NCBI GenBank assembly: GCA_008632985.1
Contig: QPGO01000137.1
Span: forward strand, 124,001-188,000
From: Psammoneis japonica
Lineage: Eukaryota
Reading direction: 5' to 3'
Length of the DNA stretch: 64,000 nt
Every line of letters begins with the position of its first letter. The first letter of the stretch is position 1. Of this stretch, positions 7,055 to 46,204 are shown piece by piece. The position numbers and the translations under genes were made by a program. The notes beneath the pieces are model-generated. The model saw nothing but the letters and a program-made list of their open reading frames with translations. It was not told the origin of the DNA and made no database searches.

Positions 7055-7730
7055 TTATTTGCGACGACCCGTCGAGCACGTGTGCTGTCCTCGAACACGA
7101 ATCCCCCACCAGTGACGAAGACCACGATGAGCTCGAATTTTCTTCATGCGTTCAATATCATCACGCAATTTCGCGTCAAAGTTTTGTGCAAACACTTGCG
7201 TGTACTTGCCCGTTTTGAAATCCTTTTGACGATTCAAAAACCACAGCGGAATTTTGAATTGACGCGGATTCTGAATAATGGCCACCAATTTTTCAATCTC
7301 GTCCGCCGTCAATTCACCCGCGCGTTTGTTGACATCAATTTCGGCTTTTTTGCAAATCAAATCGGCAAAACGACGGCCGAGGCCCTTGATTTTCGTCAAG
7401 GCAAACACCACATTACGCTTCCCCTCCACGTTGGTGTTGAGAATACGCAAAATGTGCTGAAACTCGGGGCCTTGCATCAAACTGTCTGCCCTGTAGTAAT
7501 AGTGAGAATAGCAAATTATTTGGTGAATAAAAAGACCCGGATGAAAAATGAAGTGAAGACAGACGACGCAAGGACGGGCGTTCGCTCGATCCATCGATAG
7601 CGACAACGCCATGATGAAGACGACGACGCATCCGTCAATCCATTTCTTGTCCTCTCGAACGCATTCCTCACGACGCAGCTGGAATAATCACAATGCCTGC
7701 ATTTTTTCCCTTTGTTTGCGATACGTACAT
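7055..7730 (-). CDS. RPS18: 40S ribosomal protein S18 (uS13); exons 7730-7729 and 7490-7055
   Basis: [16 protein letters not shown]...KRAGEL...[11 protein letters not shown]...HRGLRH.WG.RVRGQHT is classic uS13. Intron 7491-7728 (GTACGT...TACAG) splits the start codon AT|G. Confidence 0.93.
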
Positions 7731-8615
7731 GGTGTCCTTTTTTCGTTTCTCGTCAACACACACAAGAGACAGGGTTGTTGTGTGAGATGGTGAGTGTGTG
7801 TGCGGTGTGAGGAGTGGGGTGAGCTTCTACGTTGGTTCTGGTATTAGTTCTACGTGACTTTTTTACTTTCTACCGTTTTACTTGGGATATGAGCTGCTTA
7901 TTTAGTTGGACAAACAGACAGACTTCTTGCAACAGCATAAACACCTAATTTTTTGTTGACCCGAAGAATGCCCGTTCCCACTCTTGTTCCATCCAATGGA
8001 GAGACGCAACGTGCCATGGGAGCACAAGACACCATCAGAGTGGGGCACTGCAACCATGATGTTTGGACTTTTTCAACATCAGCCAGCTGCTCACCCTCTG
8101 CGAGCAGTGCAACCTCTCATTGCAGTGTGGTGACAAAACAGCCTCTCATTGCAGTGTGGTGGTGTGTCAAGCAATGCTTTGCAAGGGAAGAAATGACTGG
8201 CATCGATGCCTTGTGGCTTGCATGCTTGTTGTCATTTCTTGCAATTTTCTGTCATTTTAGAGAATTTGCCACAAAGGCTCCAGTGCAAATTCTGCATGAC
8301 TCAGCAACAAATGCTGGCGACCTCCTCCTTCTTGTCAAATCACAAAACTGCTTCCATCCACACCACCCCGCCAGCAGCCCTCCTCAACAATCTTCCTTTC
8401 TCCCATTGTCCAATCAAGTGCTTCACTCTGTGGGATGGTGAGAGCACTGCCTCTGTTGCAGCACATGTGCACATGAGTGAGTTGCCATCCTCTGGCGGCA
8501 TTGTTGATTTTGATTGCCACTCATTTGCTGCATGAGCCAGCATTTCTGCACAAGCTCCGGCGCTGTTTCTGCGTGGGGTGCAATGAATGATTTTTCCAAT
8601 GTGCCAACCAGTCTT

Positions 8616-10476
8616 TCTTGGAACATCAGGGTTGGAGGCAGTTTTCACAGGACAGAGAGAGACAAAGTTGTGGTGGAAAGATGTGCCAATGAGGCTGTGA
8701 ACAACACGTGATGAGTTTGTGCTCGCAACTTGGTTTGCCTTGAGCTGCAGGTCTTGTGCTCACTTTTTAGCTTCTGCACCTGGTCAACATGGCAGCAGCA
8801 GTTGGTGGCAACAGCAATGCATTTGCAAGCCACACGGTGAGTTGGAAGTTGGTGAGACCAAATGTGCACCAGTCAGCAAGCAGCAAAACTCCAACACAGA
8901 AGCCAAAAAGGTTCAGCACGACACACTCAAAGAACTGGTGTCATGTGTCAGAAGGCTGGTGGGAAGTTGAGAGGAATCCAAAAACAAGGGCTGGGAAGGA
9001 AAGTCAACAGGAATCCAAAGGTGTGTCTCATGTCAGCAGATCAATCTCTGGAGGGCCTTGCTGCCCAAGAAGCTGTCAAGGGTCTGCTGAAGAAGAAGGG
9101 CATGTCAAGGTTGTGTCGGGGTCAGAGAGACAGAGTGCACAGCTGTCAGCAAGTGATGGAACTCAAACACAAGTCCCGGAAAAAATGGGCAAGGACACAG
9201 CTGAGTGCAGGAGCATGAAAGATTCAAGTGAGGGCAGGTTTGTGACACCATTGCCAATTTGGGGGGGGGGGGGCAGCAGGCAGATGGTTCTTGCACAGAA
9301 ATCACAAGGAAGATCAGCAAGCATGTGCATGTCAGAAGAGTGTTTGGGCCAGAGGTGCAGGCGCGCTGGTGTTGCTGAGGCAAGAGAGCAACCCAAAAGA
9401 GCTGGTGCATCCATTGGGAGTCACCATGTTGGAGAAGGACAAGGCAATCTGGGGCAAGGAATGGAGCGTGATCTCTGCAAGACATGGAAGGTGAGGGCAT
9501 TTGATGTTGTTGTGGGGCAATGTGCAAAGGATGTTCATCACAAGCTTGAAGGAGTGATGGAGTTTGCAAGAGCTGCAAAGGAGCGGGACATGGCAGCACT
9601 GCTGGACACTCTCAAGTTGATCTTGTTCAATGCAAGTCTGAAGTTGAGCCCACCACATGTCCAGGTGATCAAAGCTTGGCAGCAGCAGGTGCTCATTCAT
9701 CAAGATGAAGAAGAGGCACTTCAAGATTGCCAAAATTGGCTCATGAGTGTGGCTCACAAGTGACGGAAACATCTTGTGGCCGGGTCATCAGGAAAAAATG
9801 CCAAGAAAGAAAATGGGTTCAGCAAGGATGCTGATGACACCCGGAATGAAGAAAGGAACAAGCGTGCCAAGGAACATTGGCATCATGTCCTGAAAGACCA
9901 GCATTGGCAGTTTTCACTGGGGTTTGAAATTTGTCCCAATCAAGCCAAGGAGGCACTGCAGGTGTTGGGCACCTGAAGGGCCAACAAGAACCTGATGGAC
10001 AAGCTTTGTGCAGAGCAAGAAGAGCCAGGTTAGATGCTGGAAATGTGACACAAGGTTGAGCATGTGAGAAAGGACTGTCATGACAGGGATGCATCGTTCA
10101 TTGGCACAGTTGAGCAACATGGAGCATGGGAGTCAATGGAGCAGTTGGCATGGTGTTGGGTGGCACAGATTCCAACTGTCATCCTCCTGTGCTTGACTCA
10201 CATGTGGTCAACCAGTTGACACTTCTTGTGTGAAGGAGTGTGTTGGAACATTTGGATCAAAGGTGGTTTTCACAAGAGGACAGACAGACAAAGTTGCAGA
10301 GTTTGCAACTCAGCTTGAGTTGTGGGTCTCATGTGCTCACTTTTTGGCTTCTGCACCCAGTTGACATGGAAAGAACAGCAGTTGACAGCAACAGTGGTGT
10401 GTTTGTGAGCCGTGCAGGGAGTTGGGAGTTGGGGAGACCAAATGTGCACCAGCCAGCAAGCTGCAAAACTCCAACA
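8616..10476 (+). mobile_element. Non-autonomous (gag-only) Copia-like LTR element, decayed; LTRs ~8616-8896 and 10241-10476
   Basis: Direct repeats both ending CTCCAACA. The 3' LTR starts TGTTGGA after a purine tract (tgaaggag). 5-bp TSD GTCTT at 8611-8615 and 10477-10481. Gag-like remnant RAFDVVVGQCAKDVHHKLEG...DMAALLDTLK. Confidence 0.75.
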
Positions 10477-11864
10477 GTCTTGCCTTCAAGGCTCCTTGTT
10501 GCACACATCCAAGTCCTGGCCAGGCAATCTCTTTCTTCTGTCTGTCAGCTTGTCAAGGTTGCTGTTTTGAGTGACAAACTTCCTGCCACTCTTGTTGCAG
10601 CTCTCCTTGGTGCAAAAGATGAGCAACCTTTTGACCCTGGTTGGTGCTTGTTTTGGAAGCAAATTCCAGTGCAGTTTGTGGTTTCTTTTGAAGCTCTTCC
10701 TGAATGTGACTGTCCTTTGCTGTCATGGTGTGCTGGCCTCTGTGTGGTTGCTGCCAGAGCAAATGCAACAAACTCTTTCAAGTGTTGTCTCCTCTCTGCA
10801 CCAGCTGTTTCAGCGAGGCATCACCATCTGGTGACATCTTTCCTGGCCCATCTCCTGCAACCCCTTCTGCCACACCAGTTGGTCCACTGGAAGTGTGAGT
10901 TGACCGGCACCAGTGTTGCTGGGCAAAGGTGGTGCACCATTGGTTTTTTTTCATCATGTTTGATGGGTGCCCATCATGCAGCAAAAAATTCTGGCTCAAA
11001 AATGAAGTGCAGTCAGCTGAAAAGGACAGGCACAATGGCAGGAGAAGTGAGTTGGGTGGCCGCTGCAAACCAGCAACCATGGATGTCTTGCCACTCTCTT
11101 CAAAAAAGGATGCTTTTGTCGTGTGCAACATGCAACCTGACATGCTGCTGCAGCCACATTTCAGCAAAGTGCCCATGTCCATCAAGGGAAGAGAGTGGCA
11201 TGATGAAAAGGAAAAGGTGCACAGCCTTGCATTTCATGTCATGCCCCCAACCCCCAATGTGGTTGCTTGATGAGCATGGCAGTGTTCTTGTTGAAAAACA
11301 ACTCACAACAGAGGACACCTGGGGCAAAGAGGTGAGTGGTCCTTTCTTTTTGAAAGATGGTGATGAGAATGGTGACCATGCCACAGAATGCTTCTCTCTG
11401 CCCTGTTGGAATGCCGAGCTGCAGCAGTCTCAAAGCAATCACCAGATGTTGGAAAAACACCCATTGCACACATTGTTCAATGGCATGCTTTGAGTCGCTG
11501 CCTTGTTTGAAGTGGTCAAAAGTGCCGCTTAAAAATTGACAGTCTTTTTTCTTGAGGCAGCAGCTGAGCAGGGATGCAGCAAGCTCTGCGACAGTCATGA
11601 CACCTGCTTGATGCTTGTCAACTCAGTCCAACTCATGGAGTTTGCTCAATCTTTTGCCAGGAACTCAAGTTGCAGCTCAACATCATGAGCAGCTGGTTGG
11701 CACTTGAAGAAATGCCAAGCAGCCCTCATGGCCATTGTGTCAAGAGAGCCATTGTGCAGGCCAAACTCTGTGCTTGGATGCAAGCAGATGCTTCAATGTT
11801 AAAACCACAGCCTCAGATCTTTTCTGCCAATTTGATGATGTCAACAACAAGGTCTGGCCAGCCA

Positions 11865-12250
11865 GTGTTTCCCAAATGTGCACTTTGGTTGACCAAAATG
11901 GGCACTTTGGTTGGCGCAAATTTGGTTGAGACAAATTGATGCTCATCACCAAAATGACTTTGTTTCCCAAAAACATCATTTTGGTCAGGGAAATTTGGTG
12001 TGCTTTGGAGGGAATCTTCCATTGGAAAGCAAGCATGTTGAGTCCAACACATTGTGCAAACTTTGCAGAAGCTGCATCAGCACTGTTTTTGTGTGGAAAT
12101 GTGCACAAAAATGAATTTGGTTGACACTTCACAGGTGTTAATTTGGCCAACCAAATTGGTTGGGTCAGTCTGCAAATTGGCCAACCAAAACATTTTGGAT
12201 CAACCAAAATGGCAAATTGGTCCAACCAAAATGCACACTCAGGAAAAAGC
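11865..12250. mobile_element. Decayed MITE with ~60-bp degenerate terminal inverted repeats and multiple TTGGTTG/CAACCAA subterminal motifs
   Basis: The left end ttcccaaatgtgcactttggttgaccaaaatgggcactttggttg resembles the reverse complement of the right end caaccaaaatggcaaattggtccaaccaaaatgcacactcaggaa. Confidence 0.5.
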
Positions 12251-14029
12251 GCTGAGCTCAACCATTCTCTGGCGCTGTTTGACCCTGAAATCAAGCAAGA
12301 CTTGACCACCACCAAAGGTCTCCAGCCATGTGTGGAGCCATGCAAGTGATGAAGAACTCATTTGCTTTGGTGTTGAAACATGAAACACCAAGAAATGCAC
12401 CACTCTGGGTGGAAGTTGGTGCATCACCAGCAGTGATGTCATGATGTTTTGTCCATCTTTGAGTGGCCAGCAGAGTGGCCAGATCAACTCGCAAGAAGCT
12501 CTCCATTGCAGTTGTCTGCCATTCCATCCAGTCAAACTGGGGCTGTCAAGTGCAAGAACATTGATGTCATGCACCCACAATTTGCTTGGTCAAGCATTTC
12601 AGTTGAGGTCACAACACCCAGTTGTGGCACGCCTTCATGAGTTGTCCACCGTGTTGTGCCAGTGCAACAGAATTGGCCTTCAGATGCATGAATTGCCAAT
12701 GCCATGCTGAAGTTGTGGAGGCAAGGGTCATCAAGAAAAGAGCTGCAGATTTGGTGGTGTCTCAAGCAAACAGAACATGAGGCAAACAAACAAATTGTGG
12801 AGCAGAGTTGCCAAAATCACAACAAATTTGCAAAGACAAGAACCAAATCTCATCTCTTGCTCTCTTCTTCCAGAGAACAAGTCACAGTGCTGTGATGCCT
12901 GCTCAGAGAACAAAGTGGGTTGTCTCTCTCTTGAGGTTGCACAATCCATGGTGCAGAAGCCAGAAGATGCGGCGCTGACAACAAAAATGCCACAAGTTCT
13001 AAAGACACACAAACCACAAGCAGACATGATTTTCTTCATCACCTGCATGGAGCAATTGCACTGCATGACAAACACTGCACAACAGACAACAATGTGCCCA
13101 ATGGTCAATGGCTGCTGCTGCAGTGGGACTGCACACTTTCATTTTTTTGGCTCCCACACAACCCCACATGTGATGCACAAAATCATGCCAAATCCTGCAC
13201 AACTGTCATGCAGTGAGCACCAATGGTTCAAAACACTCTTGCTTGTTCAAAAAAATTGAGACAGATGGAGTGCCACTTTGCTGTTGCTGCAGTCACTGAT
13301 GTGACAATGGGTGCTGAACACAGGTCACAGGTGCTTGGCTTCATTGAACACTCAAACCTCATCATTTTGTGCAGTGTTGGTTCACAGGAGGGCAGAAAAA
13401 GCTGGGTGAAAGGGTCAGCCAACAATTCCTGTTGATCTGCCATGGTTGTTTTTCAACCTCAAAGGCAACCAAGGTCTTGCTGATGCCAAAGCTTGTGTTG
13501 TCATGCATCTTGAGGTGTTTTGGAGGAGAGACAGAATGAGCACAGCAGTTGTCTGTTGCCCCCACAAGATGATGTCATTCCATGATCCATGAGAAAGCAT
13601 CAATTTTTCATGTCGTCACAAATGTCAGCAAAGTGTTTCTGAGGCAATTCAACCCCAAATGGAGCTCATGAAGACCAGCAAAGTGCTTCACATGGAAATT
13701 CATGCTGCAGCTCAACAAGTGAAGAACACACTTTTGCAAAAAAGAGGAGGGTCCATGCCAAGCTGACAACAAAGTTGTTCAGCATCTGCCATTTGGTTGA
13801 TTTGTTGGTGCTGCTGTCACAAATTGGAAATGATGTGGGCCCTCATTTGTGGCTTGAAAGACTCATCTGCAGGCAACAAAGCTCAACTTTGGGAACACAA
13901 GTCAGCACTCCATGTGCAACAAGCAGTGGAGGTGCACCACCTGATGAGATGCCAAATTGTCCGCTGCTGGATGGCGTTGGCAACATGCGCACAAGTTGTT
14001 TGGCTGGTCATGTTCTCAGAAGTCAAGGC

Positions 14030-14072
14030 TCTCCTCCCCCCCCCCNTCTCTCTCTCTCTCTCTCTCCCCCCT
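14030..14072. repeat. poly-C/(TC)n microsatellite containing one N
   Basis: ctcctccccccccccntctctctctctctctctcccccc. Confidence 0.9.
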
Positions 14073-14302
14073 CCACAAAGAAAACAACAGCATTTGCAGG
14101 CACACTTTTGGCAAGCACTGTCCCAAGTTGCCAAAAGCTGTAGAAGCACCACGTTGTTGATTTTGAGGCTGGGTTGCTGATTGACAGACAGCGGTGAATG
14201 AGTTGTGGAGCATTGCATCTCTGGTGACACACCACACCTTGCATTGCTCAGAATGTTGGCACGCCATTTGGACATTTCTTCTTTTCCAAAGTGTTTGAAG
14301 CA

Positions 14303-14498
14303 CTCAGTTGCACTCCCCTTGACTTGTTTGGGAAGAGAAGTTGCAAGTTTCCACAGGTTTCTGAGGACACACAACGAATCCAATCAGAAAGGTGCCAAAA
14401 TCGCGACGTTCGAGTTTTTTAAAGAGCCACACAAAATGAGAAACCTGTGGAAACTTGTGACTTCTCTTCCCAAACAAGTCAAGGGGAGTGCAGTTGAG
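14303..14498. repeat. ~60-bp inverted repeat pair (14303-14362 / 14439-14498) with ~76-bp spacer
   Basis: ctcagttgcactccccttgacttgtttgggaagagaagttgcaagtttccacaggtttct matches the reverse complement of 14439-14498 with about 4 mismatches. Confidence 0.8.
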
Positions 14499-15155
14499 GA
14501 TGGATCTACGTGCTGCAGTCTGTTTTTTGGGAGCTCGCACTTTTTATAAAAATGACCCGGATTCGTTGCACCAAACACACGCGTTGTTCGCCAAAAAAAC
14601 ATTTCAGCGATGGGCCGAACTTTGTCCGCTTCAAAGACACTGCAGAGTGCACAAACAATGGTTTTGACCATGTGTGACTTTTACCTTGTCGACTGCAGAC
14701 ATGTCAACAGCCAGTCAAATGCCACTTGTCGGCAATTCCCGGAAAGTTGCGGCTTGTTTCCCATGAGAAGCCCGATTTTAGCGAAAATCAGCTGTTTTTT
14801 CGACCGGGCAACTGGGCAGAGGCCGACAAGTGGCATTTGAAGCACTGAATGTGCAGCTCTTATAGCCGTCTAACAGCCCCCAAGAGGGTTTGACGAACGC
14901 ATGAGTGTTCGGGGGCGTTCCGAGGCAGGTCAAAATAACACGGTGAAGTGCGGGAAATTCGAGCTATTTTAAATTAGACCGCTGCACCTAGATCCATCAA
15001 GTTGGCGAGCCGACTTTGGCGATTTGTGTAGAAAACATACTAAGCTCTACGTACGTAGAATCTGAAAACTTAGGACTTGGCATCGACTCTCATCGATTCC
15101 AATCCAACTTGAAACTTACTCGACAGAAACGACAACATCGCTGCAAGCCGTCACG

Positions 15156-16301
15156 ATGAGTTTGCTGCAAAAGTTCAGGCCGTTCCTGAAAGTTGCAGTT
15201 GCAGTCGTTGTGTTTCATGGCCTTTTTCAGATGTTGCGCCTTTCAGACGACTGCTCGACTGCAACGCTCAGCTCGGAAACAAGCAAAACGGCGATTCATC
15301 GAACGTCTCCTTTTGACATGCCCATCAAGGGTGAACGCTTTGAATTGTTCCAACCACTCTATGACTTGCCCACATCCGCCGCCACCATGATGGGACCTCC
15401 TGAACCGCTGATTGAAGATCTGACGAAACGGTTGACTTGGTTGGATGGAATCACGTATGTTGGACCAGAGACAAAACCAGCAACGGAACGAGCTCAGTTG
15501 GCCTATCTGGAAATCCTCAAAAGGATGGTGTCAGGGATTTCCTATGGTGCTGCTGAATTTGCTATCCAACCGAGAGTGAGGCAAGATCGTGGAAGAATGA
15601 TTCCTCTCAACGAGGGCCGGCGACAGAATGGGCAGGATTGGACTTATCTAGGTGACACAATGACTGGATACAAGCGCCTTGACAACGTCCGTAATTTGCT
15701 GACCGACGTGATCAACAACAACATTGAAGGAGACTACATCGAAACCGGTGTTTGGAGGGGAGGCTCTTCAATTTTTGCGCGTGCAGTCTTACATGTCCAT
15801 GGGCAGGCGAAGAATCGTACAAGCTATGTTTGTGATTCTTTTCGCGGGCTACCTCCTGGAGACAGAAACTTGACATTGAAATCTGATTTGGGTTGGGACA
15901 AAACCCCATACTTGGAAGTGCCAGCCGAAATTGTCGCACAAGGATTCCAGAAGTACAGTTTGCTCGATTCTAATGTAGTCTTTGCCAAAGGCTTCTTCAA
16001 CGAAACAATGCCGCCTCTTGGGAAACGAATCGAGAAGCTGGCAGTCATGAGACTGGATGGTGACATGTACGAGAGCACCGTGGATGTTCTCTATCATTTG
16101 TATGACAAGCTCAGCATCGGGGGTTATGTGATTATGGACGACTGGACTGGTTTTCCCTCAAAGGATGCCTGCCTCGACTTTTTCAAAGTCCATGGGATTT
16201 CACCGCAAATAATTCCAATTGATACTATGTCGGCATACTGGAAGAAAACGGAGCAAGTGGAAGTGCAGAAGTGGCGATATGCCAAGAACCAGTTTTCCTG
16301 A
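15156..16301 (+). CDS. TylF/MycF/NovP-family (macrocin) O-methyltransferase, type II membrane
   Basis: TMTGYKRLDN, IEGDYIETGVWRGG, CDSFRGLP, KGFFNETMP, LRLDGDMYEST-like motif and GGYVIMDD; N-terminal hydrophobic anchor. Confidence 0.9.
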   Translation: MSLLQKFRPFLKVAVAVVVFHGLFQMLRLSDDCSTATLSSETSKTAIHRTSPFDMPIKGERFELFQPLYDLPTSAATMMGPPEPLIEDLTKRLTWLDGITYVGPETKPATERAQLAYLEILKRMVSGISYGAAEFAIQPRVRQDRGRMIPLNEGRRQNGQDWTYLGDTMTGYKRLDNVRNLLTDVINNNIEGDYIETGVWRGGSSIFARAVLHVHGQAKNRTSYVCDSFRGLPPGDRNLTLKSDLGWDKTPYLEVPAEIVAQGFQKYSLLDSNVVFAKGFFNETMPPLGKRIEKLAVMRLDGDMYESTVDVLYHLYDKLSIGGYVIMDDWTGFPSKDACLDFFKVHGISPQIIPIDTMSAYWKKTEQVEVQKWRYAKNQFS

Positions 16302-17257
16302 GATACAATCGTATTGCCCAAATGTTTCGGAAAGCACTCGAGAAATTGGCGATCGGAGTGAATGAAGAGATGGTTCTGATGGTGAAGAGTATTTTAGATA
16401 AAAGGGGGCAACAATTTAGAAGCATCTAGAAGACGAAACAGAATTTAGAAAATTTTCCCCTCTAGTAGAGCTGACACTTATCTTAAATCTTACTCTGTCA
16501 AACCTTGCGGTAGGGCTCTGCGTCTGAATAGGTGGTAACCGCATGACGGGGACGTGCTCTCTGCAATCCCACACCTTGGCGGAAGACCTTCATGCTGGTC
16601 CTCAATTTGTTGAGTGTCGCTGCGTCAGTGACTATTCGTGCACAATGTTGTGAAGGTGGAAAAATTCTACAACATTGTGAATGCGCGACAGTCTCACCAC
16701 AACGACGACATGACAAATGAAAAACTGAGAACTGGTGGCTGCCCTCCGACTCAGTTCCAGTGACCACCCAACTCGGTCTTCAACCAAGCCACCGACAATT
16801 AAAAAGACAAAGGCAAAGAGGCAACAGGCAAAGTGCCAGCAAAGAATGAACTGGACAGTCTTGCTTGCAGATTTGAAGCACTGGTCAATGTCTCTGCTGA
16901 TGACAGGGCAGATTCAGGCAGAAGCAGAAGGGTGTTTTCTTGCATTCCAGAGAGCAGATTGTTGTCTTTCTCCCATCATCAACAAGTGACTCTCTCTTTC
17001 AAAATCTTCTGCACCAATGAAGTGGTTCTGTCATTTCTCACAAAGTGTCAGAGTCTGGTCCTGCCAGTGCTGGCACCACATGGATGACATGACAATCAAA
17101 TGGCAGCAATGCTGGATTTTCAAATTGAGGCAGCAGCAGCTCGGCATCAAGGGTTGCTGTCATGCCAAGTGTCAGAAGATTTGCTGCCACTGCCCAGGCA
17201 CACAATGCTCAAAGTGTGCCAACAATTTGTTGGTCCTGTCAATGCACAAGGCAAAAA

Positions 17258-17488
17258 GTGGTGTGTGAGATGGTGAGTGTGTGTGCAGTGTGACGAGTGG
17301 GACAAGCTTGTGTGCAGATTCTAGAGCAGAGAGCATGAATTCAATGTGACTTTTTTCTTTCTGCCATTTTCGAGTTTGTGGGGGATGCAAGCTTCATGAC
17401 TTGGCAAACAGCAAACAAACTTGTGTGACACAACCAGTCTAAATAAAAGACAGGCTTTCTGCAACAGCACAAACACCTGAAAATTTTG
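17258..17488. repeat. Decayed duplicate of the RPS18 upstream/promoter region (cf. 7775-7955)
   Basis: Shares tgtgagatggtgagtgtgtgtgc, gtgactttttt.ctttct and gcaacagca.aaacacct with 7780-7950. Confidence 0.75.
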
Positions 17489-17566
17489 ACATGGTCATTG
17501 TTTTAGAATCTGCTGCAAACCTCATTGAGCAGCATCAGCAATGTCGATGCAAAACCCAAAACCAAC

Positions 17567-18100
17567 ATGGCAGAACAAGAAGAGGAGTTTGAGACAGAAG
17601 GTGCACTCAAAGCTTGGTTGGAAAGCAAAGGGGTTGGGAGGTGCAAAGCAGCAGAAGCCATTGTTTTGTTCCACAAGGGTTTCGACAATCCAGATTGCTC
17701 AGTGGAATCAGCCCTGATGTCTTGCATGGAAATTGTCTTTCTGATGCCATTGCACAAACTTTGAGCAACAAGCTTGCCAAACAACAGAAGCAAGGTCAAT
17801 CTCCCACTGTGTGTGCATTGGGGAAAGGCTTGGTTGGTCTGGACAAATCACATGAGGAGCAATGCTGAATGTGCAACTCTTGAACCTCTAGAGCAAGATC
17901 ATGTGAGGACCCTTTTTGAAAGATTTGGCTTGATGGATGAAGATGAGAAGTTTTTTCAGTCAGCTTCACAAGTCCACCACCGGTGTTCTAAGGTTTGTTG
18001 CCCATGTGGTCAATTTCTTTGCAGATTGGCATCCCGGGGCAGGTAATGAAAAGGCAAAGAATGGGAGGGAAAGACATTGATCTGATGTGCCTTGGAGTTT
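17567..18100 (+). pseudogene. Decayed gene with a diatom SAM-like N-terminal module (MAEQEEEFETEGALKAWLESKGV...FDNP...LSNKL)
   Basis: Recognisable N-terminus of a multicopy diatom family (from recall, not searched), followed by frameshifts in TA-depleted sequence. Confidence 0.4.
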
Positions 18101-19388
18101 TGACAGTGTCTTTGTTGGGAAAGCAACCAAGAGATGAATCCTCTCCAAGGCAATGCTTGCAATCTGTGTGCATTCTTCATTGAGATGATTTGAGTCACTG
18201 CTCCGCATCTGCCTCTCAACCTTGATGCAAAAATCATTGGATCCAATGGGGGTTGGAAGCAAATTCAATCATGCTCAATGTGTGTGGTGTCTGTCTGCTG
18301 CACTTGAAGAAGCACACTGAAGTGGGAACATCTGAGCACCATTTTGTCACAATGCCCCCCAGCTGTTTGGACAATGTCTCGGCAGCCTGCCAGGATTTGC
18401 TCATCCCCTTTTGGGCTTCCTTGTGCAAAATAAATCCAGCCCAGGCAAGTGCACAAAAGACTCAGGAAGCATTCCAGAGTCAATGGCACAACAGCGTCCA
18501 TGCCCTTGTGTGAGTGAAGAGTCAAATCAAGGACAAAAAACATTGGTGGAGGTTCTTGAGTTTGTCAAGGATTTGAAAATTGCAGGCTCAACATTTGAGC
18601 CCAACACAGATCATGCACTCAAGAAGTTCTCCAAAATTGCTTTGGCTCCAAGTCCAGGCAACTTCATGCTGGCAGAAGGCAGTGCACAAGTCTTTCTTCT
18701 CCAACCAGCGTTGCTTTTTCTGTTGCCATGTGTGCTCTCTGCCATCAAAAGCCAGCATTGCTGTTTTGAAGATGCTGCCACCACTCAGCAGTGCCAAGAA
18801 AGCGCCCCCTTCAATGGCCGTGCCCTGCACCCAGTGCTTGCTTTGCTCACACAGATGTTTTTTTTGCAGTTTGAGAAAAAGAAAGGTGTCAGCTGCCATT
18901 GTCTTCATTGTTGATTGCACCTGTGCACTTGCAGCAGGTGCTTCAGTCATTGACAACTTGCACAGTGTCTGTCATTGAGGAGTTCCTCAGGGGGCACCTC
19001 TCCTCTGTCTCCTCTTGTGTGGTCACCAATTTTTTCCTGACAAAGTGGACACTCTCCACTGCTTTCAATGGCACTGAATGCACCAAGCACACAGGGGGAG
19101 ACAAGAGCTGCTGCAAGGCTTTAGAAGAGCTGTTTTGGATCAAGCTTGGCTGTCTCCTTGTCATCAAGCAAGGCATCATTGCAGCAATGCAGTGGAGCGA
19201 GCATTGCTGCTGTGTGGAGAGCTGAGAGAGCCTTCCAAACAACTTCGGCACCTTCTTTGTTGCCCACTCTCTAATCTCTTTGGGCTCTGAAAAGAGCTGG
19301 GAAGTTGGCACAGAGCAACAAGCAGCAGCGCAAGGCTCTTGTTGTTGGCTGTGATTGCGGAATTTCTTGCAACCACCACCAGCACTGG

Positions 19389-20575
19389 CATTGAGAACAA
19401 ACAAAATGTGCCAAAACTTGTGGCCCTGCATGAAGCTGTCTGGCCTGCAGCATTGAGCAAGAAGAATTTGTTGTGAATGGAAAAGACCTGGATGAAAAGA
19501 AAGCAAGCACAGACGACACAAGCAAGGGTGGATTTTCAATCCATCCATGATGATGTCATGATGAGATGATGACACATCCATCACACAAGTGATGGCAGTG
19601 TTGACATGACACAAATTTGCACAAAACATTGGCATGGAACATGAGCCACAAATTTCAGAAAAAGCCAATGCCCAACCCCAAATTGCCACACACGCCACTT
19701 GCCAGTGCTCCTTTAGAAGCCAGCGCTGCTTGTTGACATCAACGTCAAGTCAACTGGGGCTGCTTGCACCCTTTTGTCTGAGTTTTGTTTGATGAGCTGA
19801 ATTTTGGAGGTGAACTCAAGCTGTCAGGAGTGCAAAATCCCATGCATTTTTAGCTGGCTTGTCATCAACCTCGCTCTCACGCCACTCGCTCTTGTTGTGT
19901 TTCTTCAAAGTGGCAAGCTCATTTGCAAAACAACATGATGTGCTCAAGGGACTCACCTGGCACCTGATTTAAAGGAATGAGCAGAACTCAGCAAGGTCAA
20001 TTTGCATCTGATGAATTCTGGAGAAATGCATCCCCATGGATGTCCAGGATGATGTCATCTCAATCGCGCAGCGCCACATCATGCACACTCAGAAGCTGCA
20101 GTGTGTTGTCAACAACAAGCACGCAAAATTCTTTTAGCTGCTGACTGGCAGTTTTCAAGAATGGGATCACATCGGCTCTTTGCCATCATCATTTGTTGGC
20201 ATGCACTGCAGCTGACAAACAAAAACAAGTCGCGCCAGCCAAGTTTCTTTTTCGTGAACGCCAAACTTGTCAATTTTTGCAACCTGTGCAAAGAGCGGTT
20301 TCAGCGGGATGTTGTGCCCACATCTTGAACACATTCCTCATGCCAGCTTTTTTCACATGGTGTCCTTTTTTCGTTTCTCAAGAGCAAACACACAAACACA
20401 GAAAGGAGAAAGTGTTGTGCGATTATTTGTGTGCGGCGAGCTTGTACGTGGATTCTCGTATGAATTCTACGTGACTTTCTTACTTTCTACCGTTTTACTT
20501 GAAATAACTGTAATATTTGGTTTGAGTAAGGGAAAACAGACAGACTTCTTGCAACAGCATAAACACCTAAATTTT
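19389..20575 (-). pseudogene. RPS18: RPS18 pseudogene fragment: exon 2 start plus intron (19389-19583), ~740 bp of unrelated insert, then exon 1 and promoter (20322-20575)
   Basis: CCRPDSFMQGHKFWHILFVLNA versus [22 protein letters not shown]. Intron similarity (aaaagacc.ggatgaaaa, agacgac.ca). 20322-20575 matches 7655-7952 (acatggtgtccttttttcgtttctc, aaacagacagacttcttgcaacagcataaacacctaa). Confidence 0.8.
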
Positions 20576-20723
20576 GAGATTGTCGTAGTTGAAGACTGAT
20601 CTCCCGCGTTGCGTGCGCAAGATTTTTTCTCACGCGACGAGCGAGCGATGTGGCCCTTGAAACAGCTGTTTCATGTCTCATTTTTTTCTGTTTTTCTTTT
20701 TGTATGAATCTTCAACCGTCATC

Positions 20724-22743
20724 ATGTTTGTGACCATGGTGCAAAACAGGGCGTTAGCTGTCGGCTTGCTTTTTATGCTGGTCTCCATGAGTCATTATGA
20801 TTGTGCGGTAGTGTTTGGATTTGCTCCATCATGGAAAGGCAGACCACCACTTGTTCATTTCCACAACAACAACAACCCACTCTCCATGAGTGTCAATGGA
20901 AATGTCAATGGAAATACCAAGGACGACGACGATATTAACGGCAGCAAGGTCAATGGCAAGGTCAATGGAGGAGGAACAACTAGTACGGATCGCTCGTCGT
21001 TTGAATCTGCAGATAAATGGATGGACGCTGCCGTCAAGTCGACATTGGAAGAGGGTGGCTTTGATGATTCGTCCTTTCTTATTGGAATTCTTGGAGATTT
21101 GCATATTGATCCCCGCAAGATGGATGAATACGCACAGGGACACGGACATTGGCTTCCCATCTTTGAACGGGCCAAGCAAGCGCACGGCAATGCCGCTCTA
21201 GTTTCGTTGGGAGATTTGGGAGAGTCCAAGAATTGTGACCATAATGACGAGAACCCAGCGGAGTTGTTTGCGGGAACGACCCAATGTCACGAATTGGCAG
21301 CCGAGTTTCTATCAAGCTTTGGTGTGCCCTATGAAGTGATTGGTGGGAATCATGACTTGGAAGGTATTGATGAATTCAAGGTGAGTAACACGAGCCTTTT
21401 TTATTTTTATCCTCCCTGCCTCATGGGTCTGATTTTCATCTCTACTCATTCTTACCTATTTTTCTCCATAAAAAAAGTCGGACGAAGAAAATCTAGAGAT
21501 ATTTCTAAAGGCGCATAAAAAGGCAACGGCTCAGTTTTGTCGAGAAATTGCCGACAAGACGCTCTTGGTTGGACTTGGATCGACCGTCTTTCGAGAAGCA
21601 CCCTACACGTCACACGAAGTCATTATCGATACCGAACAAATCGAGTGGTTTGAGGATTTGTTACAGACACACCCGGCCGATGACGGATGGAAAATATTTG
21701 TCTTTACCCACGCTCCACCCAACGGATCGGGTTTACGTGTCCTGCAAGAAAATCACGTGGTCAATGGTTGTTGTTGGCTCAACCATTCCAATGAAGGACA
21801 GTGTCGGAAATTTATAGAGCTCGTTCGAGAGCACCGTGCCATCAAGGCTTGGTTTTCGGGGCATTTCCATTTGGGACAAGATTATCAAGATTCCATTACC
21901 TTCCCCACCATTGACCCATCCGAGGGGCCCTATCCAAACCGAGGGAGTTGTGTCTTTGCACAAACGTCCGTCATGCGAGCAGGCACGTCCAGAGATGGAC
22001 GACAACAATCGCGGTTGTTACGAGGGAACAAGAGGGGCTTTGAGATTTGTACCGTGGACCATAAACTGGGAGGCAAAATACGACTCGACGCGACCGTCAC
22101 CTACAAGGATTCGGGACACGAGGTTGGTATCTACGCCCACGACGATGAGGCGTACGAACATGATAATTATTTCAAAGTGTACCAGCCCACGGAGGGGGAT
22201 CAATCCTACTTTTGTGGGGCAGAGACGGATGAGGAGTGCTCCATTACAGACGATGAACCCGTTACAATGGAAACGAGAATTTGGTGGCGACTTAGTAATG
22301 GGAGAGTCCTGGGTGTCATGAATGGGATGCTCCTCGAGTACGATAGTTCCACCTTGGCACCGTTGGGACTTGTCTTGTACGCCGAAGAACTTTTAGGAAG
22401 AGCCATTGCTGTGGTTGACTCTGGTATTGACGAGTGTATCATTACGGATGATGAAGATGCAATGGAGGGTGTCGAGTGTGACGATCACTACCTAGAACGG
22501 GAACAAGCCGTAATTGTCTTTGATCCAGAAACAGGAAAAATCACCGTTGTTCAACCAAATGAGGATGGGTCGTATTGGAGAAAGATTGTCCGCAATAAGA
22601 TTGCAAGGATGAAAGAAAAGCGGAGGGAGCAAGCGGCTGTGCAATACGCCATGGAAAGGTTCTGTCAGAGCCCCGAAGATTCAAAGAAGAATGTCGTGTC
22701 TACATGGGGGCCATACATTACCACTTCAGGAAATGCGTTGTAA
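20724..22743 (+). CDS. Calcineurin-like metallophosphoesterase, probably plastid-targeted; intron 21381-21477
   Basis: GDLH, LGDLG, GGNHD, FTHAP and SGHFH motifs. The GTGAGT...AAG intron joins ORFs 20673..21518 and 21565..22743 in frame. Signal peptide plus GFAP. The 3' end is uncertain. Confidence 0.85.
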
Positions 22744-23200: not shown

Positions 23201-25108
23201 TCATTTTGTATATTCAACGTTTCGCTTGACTTTACCAAAGGATACCTGATTCACTTGCTGTGCGAATCGAAGGGAACAGAGACTCTCGCCTCCACTCCGT
23301 TCTGTCGGTGATAAATTCACCAGCATTAATGCTTTTCCATCGCCGCTCAAACAGTCCTGAAGAAGAAACGTCAACTTTGAGTTTCGATATGGGACGTGTG
23401 GGGCCTTGTTGGCGAGGGCATGAAAGACCGTTCCTAGCGCACTAAGACTTTTGTTGATAGCCTGAGTTTCTCGAAGACGAGTCTTGTTTGATCCGGTACC
23501 AGCTCTATGTAAGCGCTCGCTACCGGCTAGATCGCACAAGTTCAAGCTGCCCTTTAGAACTTCCCCGGTATCTTTGCTAATCCCTTCCATGTCAAGTATG
23601 AAAATAGCATGACTACGGGAGCTATGTGTGCTCATATTAGTCTCTGCTACCGACCGCGAACGCATTGCGCTGCTCATCAAACAATTGAATTGTCGCATGC
23701 CCTTGTCTGGATTTTTGAAATCGATCTCAACCTGCGTGAGATTTTCAACATAGCATCTGCCCTCCTTGTTTCGTTTGATGGCAAGCTTTGCATCTGCTTG
23801 GGAGTCTAGTCTTTCTGTAAGAAGATCAACTAGCTTTTCATTGTAGATCTCTAAGAAGCTCGCCTTCATTTTGTACTCAAACTTGTCACTTTCGATGCAT
23901 TTTGCTTGCGTCAAAATTTCCTCCAGGGCTCGTGGGATAATACCCCGCTGTGAACCCTCACCTACCCCTTGCATTGTATAGGTTTTTCCCGACCCTGTTT
24001 GTCCATAGGCAAAAAGACATACGTTGTATCCGTCAAGTGCGCTCTGCACAAAATCAGAGACTTCTTCGAAAACACCTTCTTGTTCCGTCAAAGACGAAAA
24101 GACCCGATCAAAATGAAAATCATGCTGGCTCCTCGTGCTTCTATCAAAAAAGGAAAGGCTCTCGTGATCGTGAGAAACCGTAATTGGAGATATTTCGCTC
24201 GCTTGTTTGCCGTCAATCAGAATGAATGGCCGAGTACGAACGAACACACGAATGTTGCCTCTGAGATCCTGAAGGTGGTTGTGAAGCTTTCGTCGAAGTT
24301 GTCCCCCCTTATATACCTTTGCAAAGAGAGCCTCAATCTTTTTCTCCTGCTCCCTTTTGATGCCTGTCAGTTCATTCAGCTGCTGACAGAGGTCAGTCTC
24401 CATTGTCTGTTTTTCGAATTTTATCTCTCCAACTTGCTGGTTGTGAGACATTTCCAATTTATCAATCCGTAGTTTGTACTGCTTATCGAGTTCCATTATC
24501 TCTCGCCTGAGCCCCTTGAGCTGTTCTTTTCGTTTGTTGAGAAGGTTGTCATCCATGATAACGTATGCCTTGCAATTGGTGCAGTACCAATGATCCACCT
24601 TCTGGACCAGCTTCTTGCCCTCTTCATCTTGACTGGTTTGTTCTTTTCCTCCTGATGGGCATGGCATGTACGTGCTGATAAACTCTTGTAGTGGAAGCGT
24701 GATTGAACATATAGAACACTCCGATGCATCATTGGGGACGTAATTGTGAAGAAGAGAGCCTGAGCAGACGGGGCAATTCTGCAAAGCTTGCCGAAGAGAC
24801 TGATTGGATGACTTCTCGTCAGAATTCGTTTCGTTTATATTGAGCGAGGCGATATCTTCCACAACGCGTTCTTCTTTACAGTCTCGAGCAAGCTTGGGGG
24901 GTTCGTCTTGCCTCGATGCAACATGCGGTCCCTCCATTCCCTTTCCGTAGCATCCGTAGAAGCGATCCTTGTTCTCATTCTTCTCCTTCCGAAGAGTGGC
25001 AACACGGCCCTTGATTCTATCGAGTTGTTTCTGAAAGTCTTCAGTCTTTTTTACAGTTGGCTGAATTGGCGATTTCAGACAATCGTTTTCACTGACATTA
25101 GTCTCCAT
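23201..25108 (-). CDS. Kinesin-14 (C-terminal motor, Kar3/Ncd/KIFC1-like)
   Basis: Coiled coil followed by the neck LRRKLHNHLQDLRGNIRVFVR, AYGQTGSGKT, SSRSH, DLAGSER and HVPYRNSKLT. Confidence 0.93.
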   Translation of the reverse strand: METNVSENDCLKSPIQPTVKKTEDFQKQLDRIKGRVATLRKEKNENKDRFYGCYGKGMEGPHVASRQDEPPKLARDCKEERVVEDIASLNINETNSDEKSSNQSLRQALQNCPVCSGSLLHNYVPNDASECSICSITLPLQEFISTYMPCPSGGKEQTSQDEEGKKLVQKVDHWYCTNCKAYVIMDDNLLNKRKEQLKGLRREIMELDKQYKLRIDKLEMSHNQQVGEIKFEKQTMETDLCQQLNELTGIKREQEKKIEALFAKVYKGGQLRRKLHNHLQDLRGNIRVFVRTRPFILIDGKQASEISPITVSHDHESLSFFDRSTRSQHDFHFDRVFSSLTEQEGVFEEVSDFVQSALDGYNVCLFAYGQTGSGKTYTMQGVGEGSQRGIIPRALEEILTQAKCIESDKFEYKMKASFLEIYNEKLVDLLTERLDSQADAKLAIKRNKEGRCYVENLTQVEIDFKNPDKGMRQFNCLMSSAMRSRSVAETNMSTHSSRSHAIFILDMEGISKDTGEVLKGSLNLCDLAGSERLHRAGTGSNKTRLRETQAINKSLSALGTVFHALANKAPHVPYRNSKLTFLLQDCLSGDGKALMLVNLSPTERSGGESLCSLRFAQQVNQVSFGKVKRNVEYTK

Positions 25109-25620
25109 TGTTTGCTTGGCAGCAAGTGTTGAGCCTCGTGGCTGACAATGTAATGATGTGGATTAGTCTCGACAATCTTTGGATGATCAGGCGTTCGTTC
25201 TTGCTAGCTTCTACAGCGAAAGGTGCAACTTTCAACCAATCGCCCTTGGCGATTTTGTGAGCAGCTTTTGTTTTATATGTATTTTTAAAATAGCTGAATA
25301 AAATATATTGTACAGATGCACTCCACTATCATAATCGATGTACAAATATTTAACGGTCACATATTTTGGTTGCGTGTTGAGTCCCGTGAGCTCGCGACGT
25401 GGGAATTGCAATCGTGAAGAAGAATCACCAATGCCTGCTCTAGACGCGTGTCCACCAAGAGCACCAACCCACCTGATCCTCGGAGCTTGGTGTCTCAAGG
25501 CTCAACAACCTTCTTCATGTCTCCTGCCAGGGTGCTTTCTTTGCGTCTGTCTCTCCCCAGTGGTCGTTTGTGCACAGCTCACAAAAGAGCAAATCTTTTC
25601 TTCACACATCACTTTTCCAG

Positions 25621-28600
25621 TGACAGGATTTGAACAAGATCCCAGTTTGTCACACACAATTGTGTGTGCTCTTAGTTCTGCGCGCATCGCGCGACGTAGT
25701 TTGCTTTCGAGCCACAGGCTCACGAGAACAATGACAGCAGCACCAACATCAAGACACCAGTCTTTCGGCTCCTGTGACGGTCTCTGCACGGAAACTCATC
25801 TGCTGTTTAGACAGCAGCAAGGAGTCATTGTTTTCTTCCACCCAGTCATCTTCATTTTCTGTCAGATTAACAGTCTTGCTCTTCATCATCCATTGAGCGT
25901 TCATCATCGTCATCGAGAAATTTTTGATGACACGCACCGCTTGTGGCAGAAGCACACATCTGCCTTCTTCACTGCTGGACACTGGATTAAATCTACACGT
26001 TTGGATTTGTCCAATGCCTCCCATCGTTGGATGTGTTTGTTCAACGGACATTTGTTTGGCCAGGAATTCCCAAATTCTCAGACATCCGAGATTCCGGATT
26101 CCTCACAGCGGATCCCACCAATCCATCCGCACACGTCCATGCACACACGACATGAACCCCTGACTCTGGCTCTGCTCCACGCATGCCAAGTCTACCGCCT
26201 TGCATCTGCACTGGATTGCTGGTCCTCTGCAGTCCCACAAGGTCTACTGGGACAACTGTGAGAGGAAGCAGTTTGTGATTGCAGCCTGCGTTGGGGCGAG
26301 GGTGCATTTCCCACGTTTGTTCATCCCTCCACAGCGCCAAATTTGGCCGGCCTGATCGGGTTGTCCAACTGACACAAAACAAGAACGGTTCAGAGGTCTT
26401 GTCCACCTCTGGCCAGCTTGTCAGCAGGGGTTTTTAACCCATTGCTCTGCTCTCAAGCAACCCAAAGCATCGCCAGCTGCGGGTTCGGACATGCCGGCAC
26501 AACTCTGCGGACTGGACAGGAAACTTGGCACTCAACTGCAAACGGGATGTCACAGCCCAGCGGTTTCTGACTCTTGAGACAGTTCAAGACATCAAGTCAA
26601 GATTCAAGTCAAGTTTCAAGTTGTTTCAAGCCCACACTCTGATTCCAGCCAGCTGTGACATCCACCCAGTTGCAACATGGTTCTCACCAGGCAACAACAA
26701 ATCGATGGCCTCGAGCACATTCTAGGCACTGTTCTGAATCAAGCCACAGACAGTCCAGTGTGCTCCGCCCTCAACATTGATGGAACCAATTTGCATCAGG
26801 ACCTTTTCACTTTTACTCTGATGCAATTGGATGCCCTTGTGTGCAACGACGGCACCAAGCAAATGCCCTTGCCACGTGGTTACAAAGCACAGACAGCTGC
26901 GCTGATTAGCCTGCACACGGCAAAAGCACGCGGCGGCGCGGATGTCAGCAATGACCCTCAGTTGTTCACACAAGAGGAGTTCACCAACTGTCATCTTAGT
27001 CCTGAGTGTGCAGCGTCCCTCTCGATGGGTGCAGCACCATCTGCTCCCACTCCTGGCTCGTTGCCACCCAAACCACGTGATCCCATGCATGACTTTAAAT
27101 GAGGCATTAAACGTGACCCACTTGCCTTCGCACTTCTCAAGTCCGACAAACAGTGGCACATGTGGCACACCTCCATCATCACACAGGCCCACTCCCAAGA
27201 CATTGCATGTGCACTCTCGATCTGATGCACAAGCCCTCCACAGCTGAGGACAAGGCCCTGTTTGATGAACAACAGAAGCACATGTTCGCAGTGTTTGAAC
27301 GGATCTTGCAGAATGACAAAGGCAAGGCACTTGTTCATCAACATGTCGGCTCCTCTGATGCTCAAGCGGTGTGTCATGACCTCTCCAAGTGCACCCTCAC
27401 TTCCACCCATGCATCCCTGGAGTCCTTGACCCTTCTCACACACCTCACCACTGCTCGCCTTGGTGATGGCACCTGGAAAGGATCCACTCATGCCTTCACA
27501 CTTCACTGGCAGGATTTGCTTCGCAAGTGTGAAGCTCTTGTCCCGGGTGCGGACCATTTCTCTGCTGGCCAGAAACATGTCATGCTTGAGAACGCCATTC
27601 ATCCTGTTGAAGAACTCCATTCAGTGAAGAATCAGGCCAATCAGTTCCGCACTCAGAATGGAAAGGGGCCCTCTTACAAAGAGCACTGTGGACTCCTGCT
27701 TTCTGCTGCAGCACAGCATGACAGCACGTTCGCTCCCAAGACAGCTCCTTGCACTCCGCGCCGTGCCATCTACAAACATGACCTGGTCCCTGATGACCCT
27801 GATGATGATGCATTCTTCAACATTGACAGTGATGTTGACGTCATCCAAGCTCATGCTGCACAAACTCGCAGCAATTCCCTCACCAAGGAACAACGGCGTC
27901 GCATTCCGCCGGACCATCAGCGCATTTGGGACACCTCACCCCAGCCCACCAAAGCGATCATTCTTGGCTCGCACACCGCCCACACCGGCAACTGCCATGA
28001 CTTGACGGCGGTCAACCTGCATGACCTCCGCATTGGCAGTGATGGCAATGTCAACTTGTCCGCCAACACTCACGATCTTGCGTCAGCCTCAACACAATCC
28101 GACACTGCAGCCGATGCAGCCGATGCCAACCCCATCCTGGCTCATCTCACCAGGCGCAAGCCTCTGCCACCTGGCAACTTGCAACATCTCCTGGCACCTG
28201 AATGGCCTCCTTCCACCTGTTCTGGCAAAAAACCGCCCGGATCTGCACCTTCCGTCCGCTCCGACGCAAAGCCCAATGACACTGTCATTGAGATCAACAG
28301 CCACAAATGCTGTCACGTCAACAACCACAATGTTGTCTGCTCTGCCTCGACCCACAAGTCAACTCGCAAAGGTGCTCTCGTGGATCATGGTGCAAACGGT
28401 GGCATCGCCGGTGATGATGTTTGTGTCATTGCCCGCACTGGTTGCCAGGTTGACGTCCAAGGTGTCAACGATCATCAACTGGTGGTGGACATTCCCATTG
28501 TCACTGCTGGTGGTGTCATCCACACGCAACGCAGCCCTGCCATTGCCATCCTTCACCAGTGTGCCCACACTGGAAAGGGGAAGACGATGCACTCTTGCAG

Positions 28601-36995: not shown

Positions 36996-37446
36996 TGCAA
37001 CACACAGCTGCCAATGAGAGTTGATGCATCACGGTGACGTGTTGCAGCCTTTACATGTCACAAAGGGCGTGACAAAAACAACCTTTTGTCTGCATGCATG
37101 CTGCATTGTGAATTCACAGCGGAGTGGTTCATCGCAACCATTGGGCAGGAGGCCAGGGGTTCGAAACCCTGAGTGGGAGTTGTCTGCAGCAACGTTGATC
37201 ACTGTCGAACGTGCAAAACTCTGTGCAGTTCTGTGTGTTCCTTCACACGTGCCCACACTGTTCCGCCAAAACCGTGCAGTGTCAGCACACGTTCGTCAGT
37301 GAAGAGCCGCATGGACGCGTGATGCATGGGGAGGAGTGCAACATGCAGCCACCAATGAGAGTCAGTGCATCACGGCAATGTGTCACAGCCTTTAAATGTC
37401 ACAAAGGGCGTGACAAAAACAACCTTTTGTCTGCATGCATGCTGCA
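36996..37446 (+). mobile_element. TRIM (miniature LTR element) copy A; 110-bp LTRs 36996-37105 and 37337-37446
   Basis: TG...CA direct repeats, PPT ggggaggag before the 3' LTR, 4-bp TSD CTGG. Confidence 0.88.
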
Positions 37447-46103: not shown

Positions 46104-46204
46104 ATTGTTTGAGTCGTCAGAGTCGCTGTTTGAGGGATAACTACTCTATATTATTTGCAAGAATTTATGGTACCGTAGGAAATTATATGTGGAAACAATG
46201 CAAG

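Follow-up and report, generated by a model that had tools for sequence, protein, structure and literature searches.

Loss of TpA and CpG in copies of an RPS18 5′ region: location and duplication in a 64-kb window of Psammoneis japonica

Why are some pieces of a duplicated host segment heavily mutated while others are spared? This question is raised by a stretch of 64,000 nucleotides from Psammoneis japonica (contig QPGO01000137.1, positions 124,001 to 188,000, hereafter the window), in which the 5′ part and promoter of the ribosomal protein gene RPS18 (copy A, about 7375-7955) has three paralogous pieces, referred to as B, C1 and C2. Copy A runs from the first codons of exon 2 through the intron and exon 1 into ~225 bp of upstream DNA. 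The analysis revealed that, among the pieces of this one duplicated host segment, mutation goes with location in a domain depleted of the dinucleotides TpA and CpG (also written TA and CG), and not with duplication. The coordinates of all features are collected in Table 1.

Copies of the RPS18 5′ region

A self-BLAST of positions 7200-8200 against the window paired A with C2 (7727-7953 with 20355-20575, 75%, E 4e-37), with C1 (7432-7637 with 19386-19583, 72%, E 2e-26) and with B (7761-7925 with 17245-17422, 69%, E 5e-16), and tblastn found RPS18 residues 2-23 in C1 at 19440-19375. The decayed copies of the RPS18 5′ region noticed in an earlier, sequence-only reading of this DNA are thus real. 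When transitions are tolerated or a purine/pyrimidine alphabet is used, the C1 match extends to about 7368-7390 in A and 19320-19340 in C. C1 and C2 match A collinearly; just ~20 bp of A is absent between them, its place taken by 738 bp of other DNA, so that copy C appears to be a single duplicated unit, lying head-to-head with a phosphoesterase gene. No convincing terminal repeats or target duplications were detected for the 738-bp insert. Short second copies of C1 sequence are found within it at 20029-20090 (for example, TCCAGGATGATGTCAT vs TCCATGATGATGTCAT), and local duplication may be the origin of part of the insert. A leftward extension of B into exon 1 and the intron (17171-17226) is weak, with a score of 64 against a shuffle maximum of 42, and was not relied on.

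With A as the reference, substitutions were counted by class as changed over aligned positions. From A to C1, 5/14 TA, 16/31 CG and 24/151 other positions are changed; the corresponding counts are 8/23, 4/8 and 26/159 from A to B, and 2/24, 2/16 and 32/203 from A to C2. In C1 and B taken together, TA-type transitions affect nine of the 37 TA positions vs 13 of 172 other A/T positions (Fisher p 0.006), and CG-type transitions 16 of 39 positions vs 16 of 138 elsewhere (p 9e-5). The control copy C2 is without such an excess (TA-type 1/24 vs 4/116; CG-type 2/16 vs 8/87), and C>T and G>A changes outside CG are not elevated (7/63 and 9/75). The direction is one-way: TA or CG in the intact copies became TG or CA in B and C1, never the reverse. 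C1 is without any TA, and one CG is unchanged in its comparison with A. When the B lineage is polarised by the agreement of A with C2, the changed positions are 9/19 for TA, 4/8 for CG and 20/117 for the others. The sequence-only reading fares well on these points: the excess of TA transitions is present; its quoted examples, ctgTAgTA to ctgCAgCA, cTAccg to cTGcca and cagcaTAaacaccTAa to cagcaCAaacaccTGa, all occur in the copy alignments; and the functional copy is unmutated, with 24 TA and 32 CG in 7375-7955. The part of copy C on the phosphoesterase side keeps its TAs, as had also been noted, and the distal C1 has lost all of them.

The divergence at ordinary sites, neither TA nor CG, is ~16% in all three comparisons, in the mutated and the spared copies alike, which indicates that the duplications are old and that only TA and CG were accelerated in the affected copies. 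The character states of B are mixed, with a GT-rich block at 7775-7820 common with A and others, such as ATGAATTC, common with C2. Since B shares states with both, A is a paralogue and not a strict ancestor, and A, B and C are paralogues without a clear order of descent. The comparison of ancestor with descendant that had been proposed was therefore too strong for copies with this background divergence.

Depleted domains, retrotransposon remnants and flanking bases

Six depleted domains (D1 to D6) make up 31.6 kb of the 64 kb. They contain 112 TAs, with observed/expected ratios (O/E) of 0.055 for TA, 0.36 for CG, 1.78 for TG and 1.75 for CA, while the remaining 28 kb show ratios of 0.56, 0.90, 1.19 and 1.17, respectively. 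Single domains range from 0.00 to 0.09 for TA and from 0.13 to 0.72 for CG, and their edges fall within tens to a few hundred bases. The counts of TG and CA on one strand are near-equal (699/718 in D1, 380/391 in D2), showing that both strands are affected; for a strand bias of TG vs CA in the two retrotransposon-bearing domains, O/E and raw counts disagree, and the result was dropped. D2 includes the left 50 bp of C2 but neither its right 204 bp nor the working RPS18 copy; in this left edge, both aligned CGs of A are now TG and CA. Read depth in contigs of run X1 shows D2 to be single-copy (67-81, as in the flanking genes), and the D1 part at 8636-10771 to be multi-copy (550-1300 vs ~67).

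Domains D3 and D6, which bear the retrotransposon remnants, have lost TA (33 TAs remain in D3 and 27 in D6) and yet keep much of their CG, so TA loss is the faster step and CG loss the slower; the domains without recognisable genes have lost both. A Pfam scan of 11 long frames (five in D1, two in D2 and four in D4, the D5 frames lying outside the scan) found no families, and these frames exist mainly because TAA and TAG have been erased. Frames of at least 150 codons inside the domains number 40, as TAA and TAG cannot survive there. Domains without these stops are thus full of long false reading frames and are a trap for gene prediction.

The loss of TA is also visible in protein. The gypsy-like pol frame contains one tyrosine in 795 residues, compared with 3.2% tyrosine in the host proteins, and its cysteine and histidine are doubled. 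At 16 tyrosines of Ty3 (alignment to the reverse transcriptase structure 4ol8_A, counted by hand), the frame has six Cys, four His, three Phe, two Leu, one Asp and no Tyr, and it reads HIDD where the tyrosine of the motif YLDD would be expected. The change of tyrosine to cysteine or histidine is as predicted from TAY to TGY or CAY. The frame remains open for 795 codons despite the near-total loss of tyrosine codons.

The three copies of a dispersed 450-bp repeat are ~90% identical in four letters and 98.7-99.3% identical in the purine/pyrimidine alphabet. Their 84 pairwise difference events comprise 40 paired CA/TG differences, 19 CG singles, two TA singles and 23 others; the paired differences indicate independent outcomes, copy by copy, at a shared ancestral dinucleotide. 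A likely pair of long terminal repeats (LTRs; 25619-25864 and 32220-32465) differs by 18 events, among them ten of CG type, one TA/TG and one CA/TG. As the repeat copies and the LTR pair differ at sites derived from TA and CG, the mutations postdate copying. The 450-bp repeat is bounded by direct repeats of 110 bp and carries a tRNA-like arm (GGTTCGAAACC); an ARAGORN scan of the repeat calls no tRNA. It may be an element like a short interspersed element or a solo LTR. A TTTAAA site is retained in five of its six terminal repeats, and the first repeat of R1 has TTTACA.

The bases next to TA follow a rule (R, purine; Y, pyrimidine): RTAY is lost first and YTAR is the longest-lived. The surviving TAs of the domains comprise 62 YTAR, 48 mixed and two RTAY sites, against 183, 568 and 301 in normal DNA (chi-square p 2e-22). 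ATAT, GTAC and ATAC/GTAT are nearly gone from the domains, and TTAA and CTAA/TTAG persist longest. On a more speculative reading, the preference for the palindrome RTAY hints at a symmetric reader of double-stranded DNA.

Table 1. Coordinates of the copies, depleted domains, repeats and genes of the window.
Feature	Position	Strand	Description
Copy A, promoter and 5′ flank of RPS18	7732..7955		Normal TA and CG (12 TA, 6 CG); homologous to B and C2
Copy B	17226-17516		Decayed promoter part only (A about 7742-7955); 4 TA, 2 CG remain
Copy C1	19340-19583	-	Decayed start of exon 2 and 3′ part of intron (A about 7390-7637); 0 TA, 2 CG
Stretch of 738 bp dividing copy C	19584..20321		Depleted (4 TA, 17 CG); some local duplications of C1 sequence
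C2, left edge	20322..20371		5′ part of intron and exon 1 remnant; no TA
C2, promoter part	20372..20575		Undepleted (13 TA, 8 CG); two blocks almost identical to A
Depleted domain D1	7947..14420		TA O/E 0.02, CG O/E 0.13
Depleted domain D2	16801..20423		TA O/E 0.06, CG O/E 0.18; contains B, C1, the 738-bp insert and the left edge of C2
Retrotransposon-bearing depleted domains D3, D6	26450-33650, 58900-64000		TA O/E 0.08-0.09, CG O/E 0.51-0.72
Copia-like remnant (RVT_2)	30502-32231		E 2e-6 and 6e-5, both below Pfam cut-off
Gypsy-like remnant (RVT_1/RNase H/integrase)	59818-62931	-	E 3e-25
Dispersed repeat of 450 bp, three copies	36996-37446, 40008-40454, 59356-59803	-
RPS18 (uS13), working gene	7055..7750	-	Pfam Ribosomal_S13, E 1.9e-50; S13/S18 family
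TylF-type methyltransferase gene	15156-16298		Pfam
Calcineurin-like phosphoesterase gene	20681-22743	+	Intron 21378-21474

Location, duplication and rival explanations

The explanation that we consider probable is an in-place change of TpA to TpG or CpA at the level of DNA, together with CpG decay, both confined to silent domains. A segment of ~0.55 kb, consisting of the RPS18 5′ end and promoter, would have been duplicated at least twice long ago, and the pieces landing in silent, repeat-derived DNA (B, C1 and the left edge of C2) would then have been mutated in place on DNA. One part of the process would be a fast change of TpA to TpG or CpA, that is, A-to-G on either strand, and the other a slower change of CpG to TpG or CpA, such as the deamination of methylated cytosines would produce. 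The same domain-limited process would have stripped the neighbouring retrotransposon remnants; the working RPS18 gene and the promoter copy before the expressed phosphoesterase gene, being outside the domains, would have been spared. The repeat comparisons, the counts on both strands and the collinear host fragments together point to a process acting in place on DNA and not to one-strand RNA editing. As for the chemistry, we infer adenine deamination in DNA or a mispairing modified thymine at TpA; a modified thymine pairing with G at TpA gives a pattern identical to that of adenine deamination. Silent or methylated chromatin would direct the mutation.

Targeting by position and not by homology is supported indirectly. 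Of the sequence-only reading on this point, the precedence of location over homology stands, with A and the C2 promoter spared and D2 single-copy; a limit set by chromatin domain or transcription is one possibility, the edges also adjoining insert junctions. The edges lie ~200 bp from the reach of RPS18 exon 1 (~7750) and 310-340 bp from the start of the phosphoesterase contig (20681), both taken from contigs of run X2, whose ends need not be true transcript ends. Within copy C, the TA-based edge is 19583-20424 and no finer, because no aligned ancestral TA exists between these positions; the CG evidence places it at 20331-20372. A silent-chromatin domain held off the active promoters fits as the cause of the edges.

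Several points weigh against this explanation. The D1 edge is at most ~10 bp from the end of the A/C2 homology, and the D2 edge, by the CG evidence, lies 10-50 bp past the point where the 738-bp insert ends. The same picture would result, with an equally good fit, if inserted DNA were what is marked and the marking extended into short host pieces embedded in it. The counts in the copy alignments are small, the comparison of A with B alone is weak for TA (5/23 vs 7/84, p 0.08), and C1 is without an outgroup, so its polarity rests on asymmetry alone. The gain and loss of tetranucleotides is indecisive between the base before T and the base after A, because transposon and host composition differ; four polarised copy cases, too few, favour an A followed by a pyrimidine. 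Among 80 metagenome loci with relatives of the phosphoesterase (49-82% identity, 20 of them with >2.5 kb upstream), depletion of the TA/CG type was found in none of 699 1-kb windows, these being gene-centred contigs that rarely hold repeats. X1, a run of unrecorded platform, is possibly the assembly's own source. The case is carried mainly by the statistics across whole domains, by the comparisons of repeats and by the support from reads, the alignment counts being small.

Could the changes have been made before integration, with RNA or cDNA mutated by an ADAR- or APOBEC-like activity in retrotransposition and B and C1 carried along as passengers? Two depleted domains are retrotransposon remnants, and both promoter-side edges of depletion are nearly at junctions of inserted DNA. 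Nevertheless, we regard this as unlikely. The arrangement of C1 and C2, with its ~20 bp missing, resembles one duplicated host segment and not cargo; TG about equals CA on one strand and the tyrosines of pol became both Cys and His, which single-strand RNA editing would not produce; the LTR pair and the 450-bp repeat copies were mutated after copying; and D2 is single-copy. Homology-dependent mutation of duplicates, similar to the repeat-induced point mutation (RIP) of fungi, with the essential RPS18 surviving by selection against mutated versions, seems quite improbable. A still has 22 TA and 26 CG in its intron and promoter, mostly at hardly essential sites; C2, also a duplicate, was spared in its promoter part; D2 is single-copy, and the bin 14510-15043, with a summed X1 depth of 2686 or ~40x single-copy, is not TA-depleted (TAs at 14545, 14547, 14682 and others). 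The chemistry is moreover the reverse, as TA is destroyed and not created; the sequence-only reading had already set the process apart from RIP. In favour of such a mechanism are the facts that the mutated pieces are duplicates and that, according to the available text of PMC9998398, diatoms have DNMT4 enzymes related to fungal RID.

We give less credence still to a genome-wide bias of TA and CG to TG and CA combined with selection, the domains then being old neutral DNA. TA is below expectation even in the normal parts, and the two blocks common to A and C2 look conserved. However, the RPS18 intron holds 10 TA and 20 CG in 239 bp, the stretches of C2 that are not conserved with A retain TAs at 20424, 20505, 20511, 20514 and 20527, ordinary-site divergence is equal in mutated and spared copies, and repeat copies only ~1% apart in the purine/pyrimidine alphabet are already near TA-free, which argues for a locally raised rate. 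The least probable reading is a sequencing or assembly artefact, in which modified bases at TA and CG in silent DNA are misread as TG or CA. TA and CG are both palindromes that could carry symmetric modifications, and at 9415 and 12082 in D1 the window has TG or CA where X1 has CG. Against this, an X1 contig of 5529 bp with a word depth of ~67 covers 15035-20563, and with it the D2 sequence, with one differing letter (19714, TA in the window and CA in X1). This reproduction of the depleted sequence makes an assembly artefact unlikely, and the depth and clean contigs indicate that the reads are probably accurate. The copies also differ by transversions and indels, like genuine old paralogues, and the same mutation class is present in Illumina mutation-accumulation data of another protist, as given in the available text of bioRxiv 10.64898/2026.01.13.699255.

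Within single X1 contigs and away from their ends, the window differs cleanly at just three positions, 9415, 12082 and 19714. All three are transitions inside domains and might represent alleles, continuing mutation or errors of the consensus; the difference at 19714 is the sole hint of a mutation rate raised in real time. One N is present in the window (14046, in D1), flanked by a run of C and a CT microsatellite; the X1 reads seem cut at 14047-14081, and the N is probably an assembly join. A 196-bp palindrome occupies 14303-14498, and the neighbouring undepleted ~40x bin directly adjoins D1.

Neighbouring genes and known systems

The genes of the window are eukaryotic and intron-poor. RPS18 exon 2 is located at 7058-7490 with its stop codon at 7055-7057, the intron at 7491-7728, and exon 1 from 7729 to at least ~7750, the start codon being interrupted by the intron. 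X2 contigs confirm the introns of both RPS18 and the phosphoesterase gene, joining 7489 to 7728 (238 bases skipped, CT..AC on the + strand) and 21377 to 21475 (GT..AG borders), respectively; the X2 contig on the latter gene begins at 20681. Three genes are covered by X2 contigs, but D2 and most of D1 are not, and this absence of cover is no evidence of silence. The contigs of run X3 have no match anywhere in the window. Phosphoesterase exon 1 narrowly fell short of the Pfam cut-off (Metallophos, E 4.6e-4), and the nearest protein-atlas clusters of this protein are diatom proteins (score 0.89, a lead only). A 653-residue open frame (23201-25162, - strand), judged from sequence alone, presumably encodes a kinesin. 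Three tandem units of ~1.3 kb at 42159-46120 are 65-68% identical (79-84% in purine/pyrimidine) and normal in TA content.

The head-to-head position of the RPS18 5′ fragment (copy C) and the phosphoesterase gene had also led to the suggestion that the two genes once shared a promoter; an original locus and a later partial copy are both possible. Synteny does not support the suggestion, as RPS18 is present in none of the 80 metagenome loci with phosphoesterase relatives. No other window gene is found there either, which shows these relatives to be too distant to decide. The promoter blocks of A and C2 gave only chance-level matches upstream of the relatives.

Fungal RIP converts CpA to TpA, lowers GC content, needs duplicated sequence and affects both copies. 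It has in common with the present case that particular dinucleotides are irreversibly mutated by transitions, with destruction of transposons and regional domains of altered composition as the outcome, whereas the present process eliminates TA, raises GC and leaves duplicates outside the domains untouched. The CpG decay of methylated transposons likewise turns CG into TG or CA in repeat-derived DNA, but it explains only the CG half, as D3 and D6 lost TA and keep a CG O/E of 0.5-0.7. Diatom DNA methylation is mainly at CpG, according to the available text of PMC5124317. Retroelement editing by animal ADAR and APOBEC also leaves deaminase footprints fixed in retroelement copies; its substrate is a single strand of RNA or cDNA prior to integration, whereas the mutations described here fall on both strands, in host fragments that are not mobile and in copies already integrated.

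We place the process with the recently described TpA hypermutation; in this case it is seen in a diatom-like genome and affects host-derived DNA as well. In mutation-accumulation lines of Bigelowiella natans, according to the preprint text examined (Mettrop et al., bioRxiv 10.64898/2026.01.13.699255), A>G/T>C mutation is restricted to TpA and to two integrated viral regions, where it proceeds at ~1000x background, and the genome contains 124 clusters that are poor in TpA, rich in CpA and TpG, and enriched in reverse transcriptase and transposase domains. Its authors suggest a DNA adenine deaminase of ADAT2 type and view the hypermutation as aimed at invading DNA; the Discussion quotes a preference of ADAR for U before the edited A. 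Both cases involve A>G/T>C at TpA giving TpG or CpA (known here from footprints only), kb-scale regions beside normally evolving DNA, and independence of copy number, the giant-virus region of B. natans being single-copy. However, that host is a chlorarachniophyte, and the depletion found here is near-saturated (TA O/E 0.00-0.09) compared with 0.45 in the giant-virus region. Coupled CpG loss and the flanking-base rule are further differences, 'CpG', 'trinucleotide' and 'flanking' having no occurrences in the preprint text examined. Host-derived fragments are also affected here (the RPS18 pieces in D2), and D3 and D6 hold retrotransposon domains. For diatoms, a literature search, with subscription journals not covered, did not turn up any paper describing TpA loss or hypermutation.

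The first report of TpA-specific DNA hypermutation dates from 2026 and concerns a single alga. The window provides a natural experiment in which pieces of one host segment were mutated or spared by location, with the rate at other sites unchanged, and this location-dependent fate speaks against both foreignness and repetition as the feature recognised. The window also offers concrete edges (about 7947 and 20331-20424) for comparing methylation and chromatin maps, and the flanking-base rule is a constraint that any candidate enzyme must explain. More tentatively, and with the balance of our judgement still leaning the other way, diatoms may share with Bigelowiella a TpA adenine editing directed by chromatin position, which with CpG methylation would erase silent DNA of foreign or host origin and stop a few hundred bases from active promoters; it may be an old, GC-raising 'reverse RIP' defence of the SAR (stramenopiles, alveolates and Rhizaria) supergroup.

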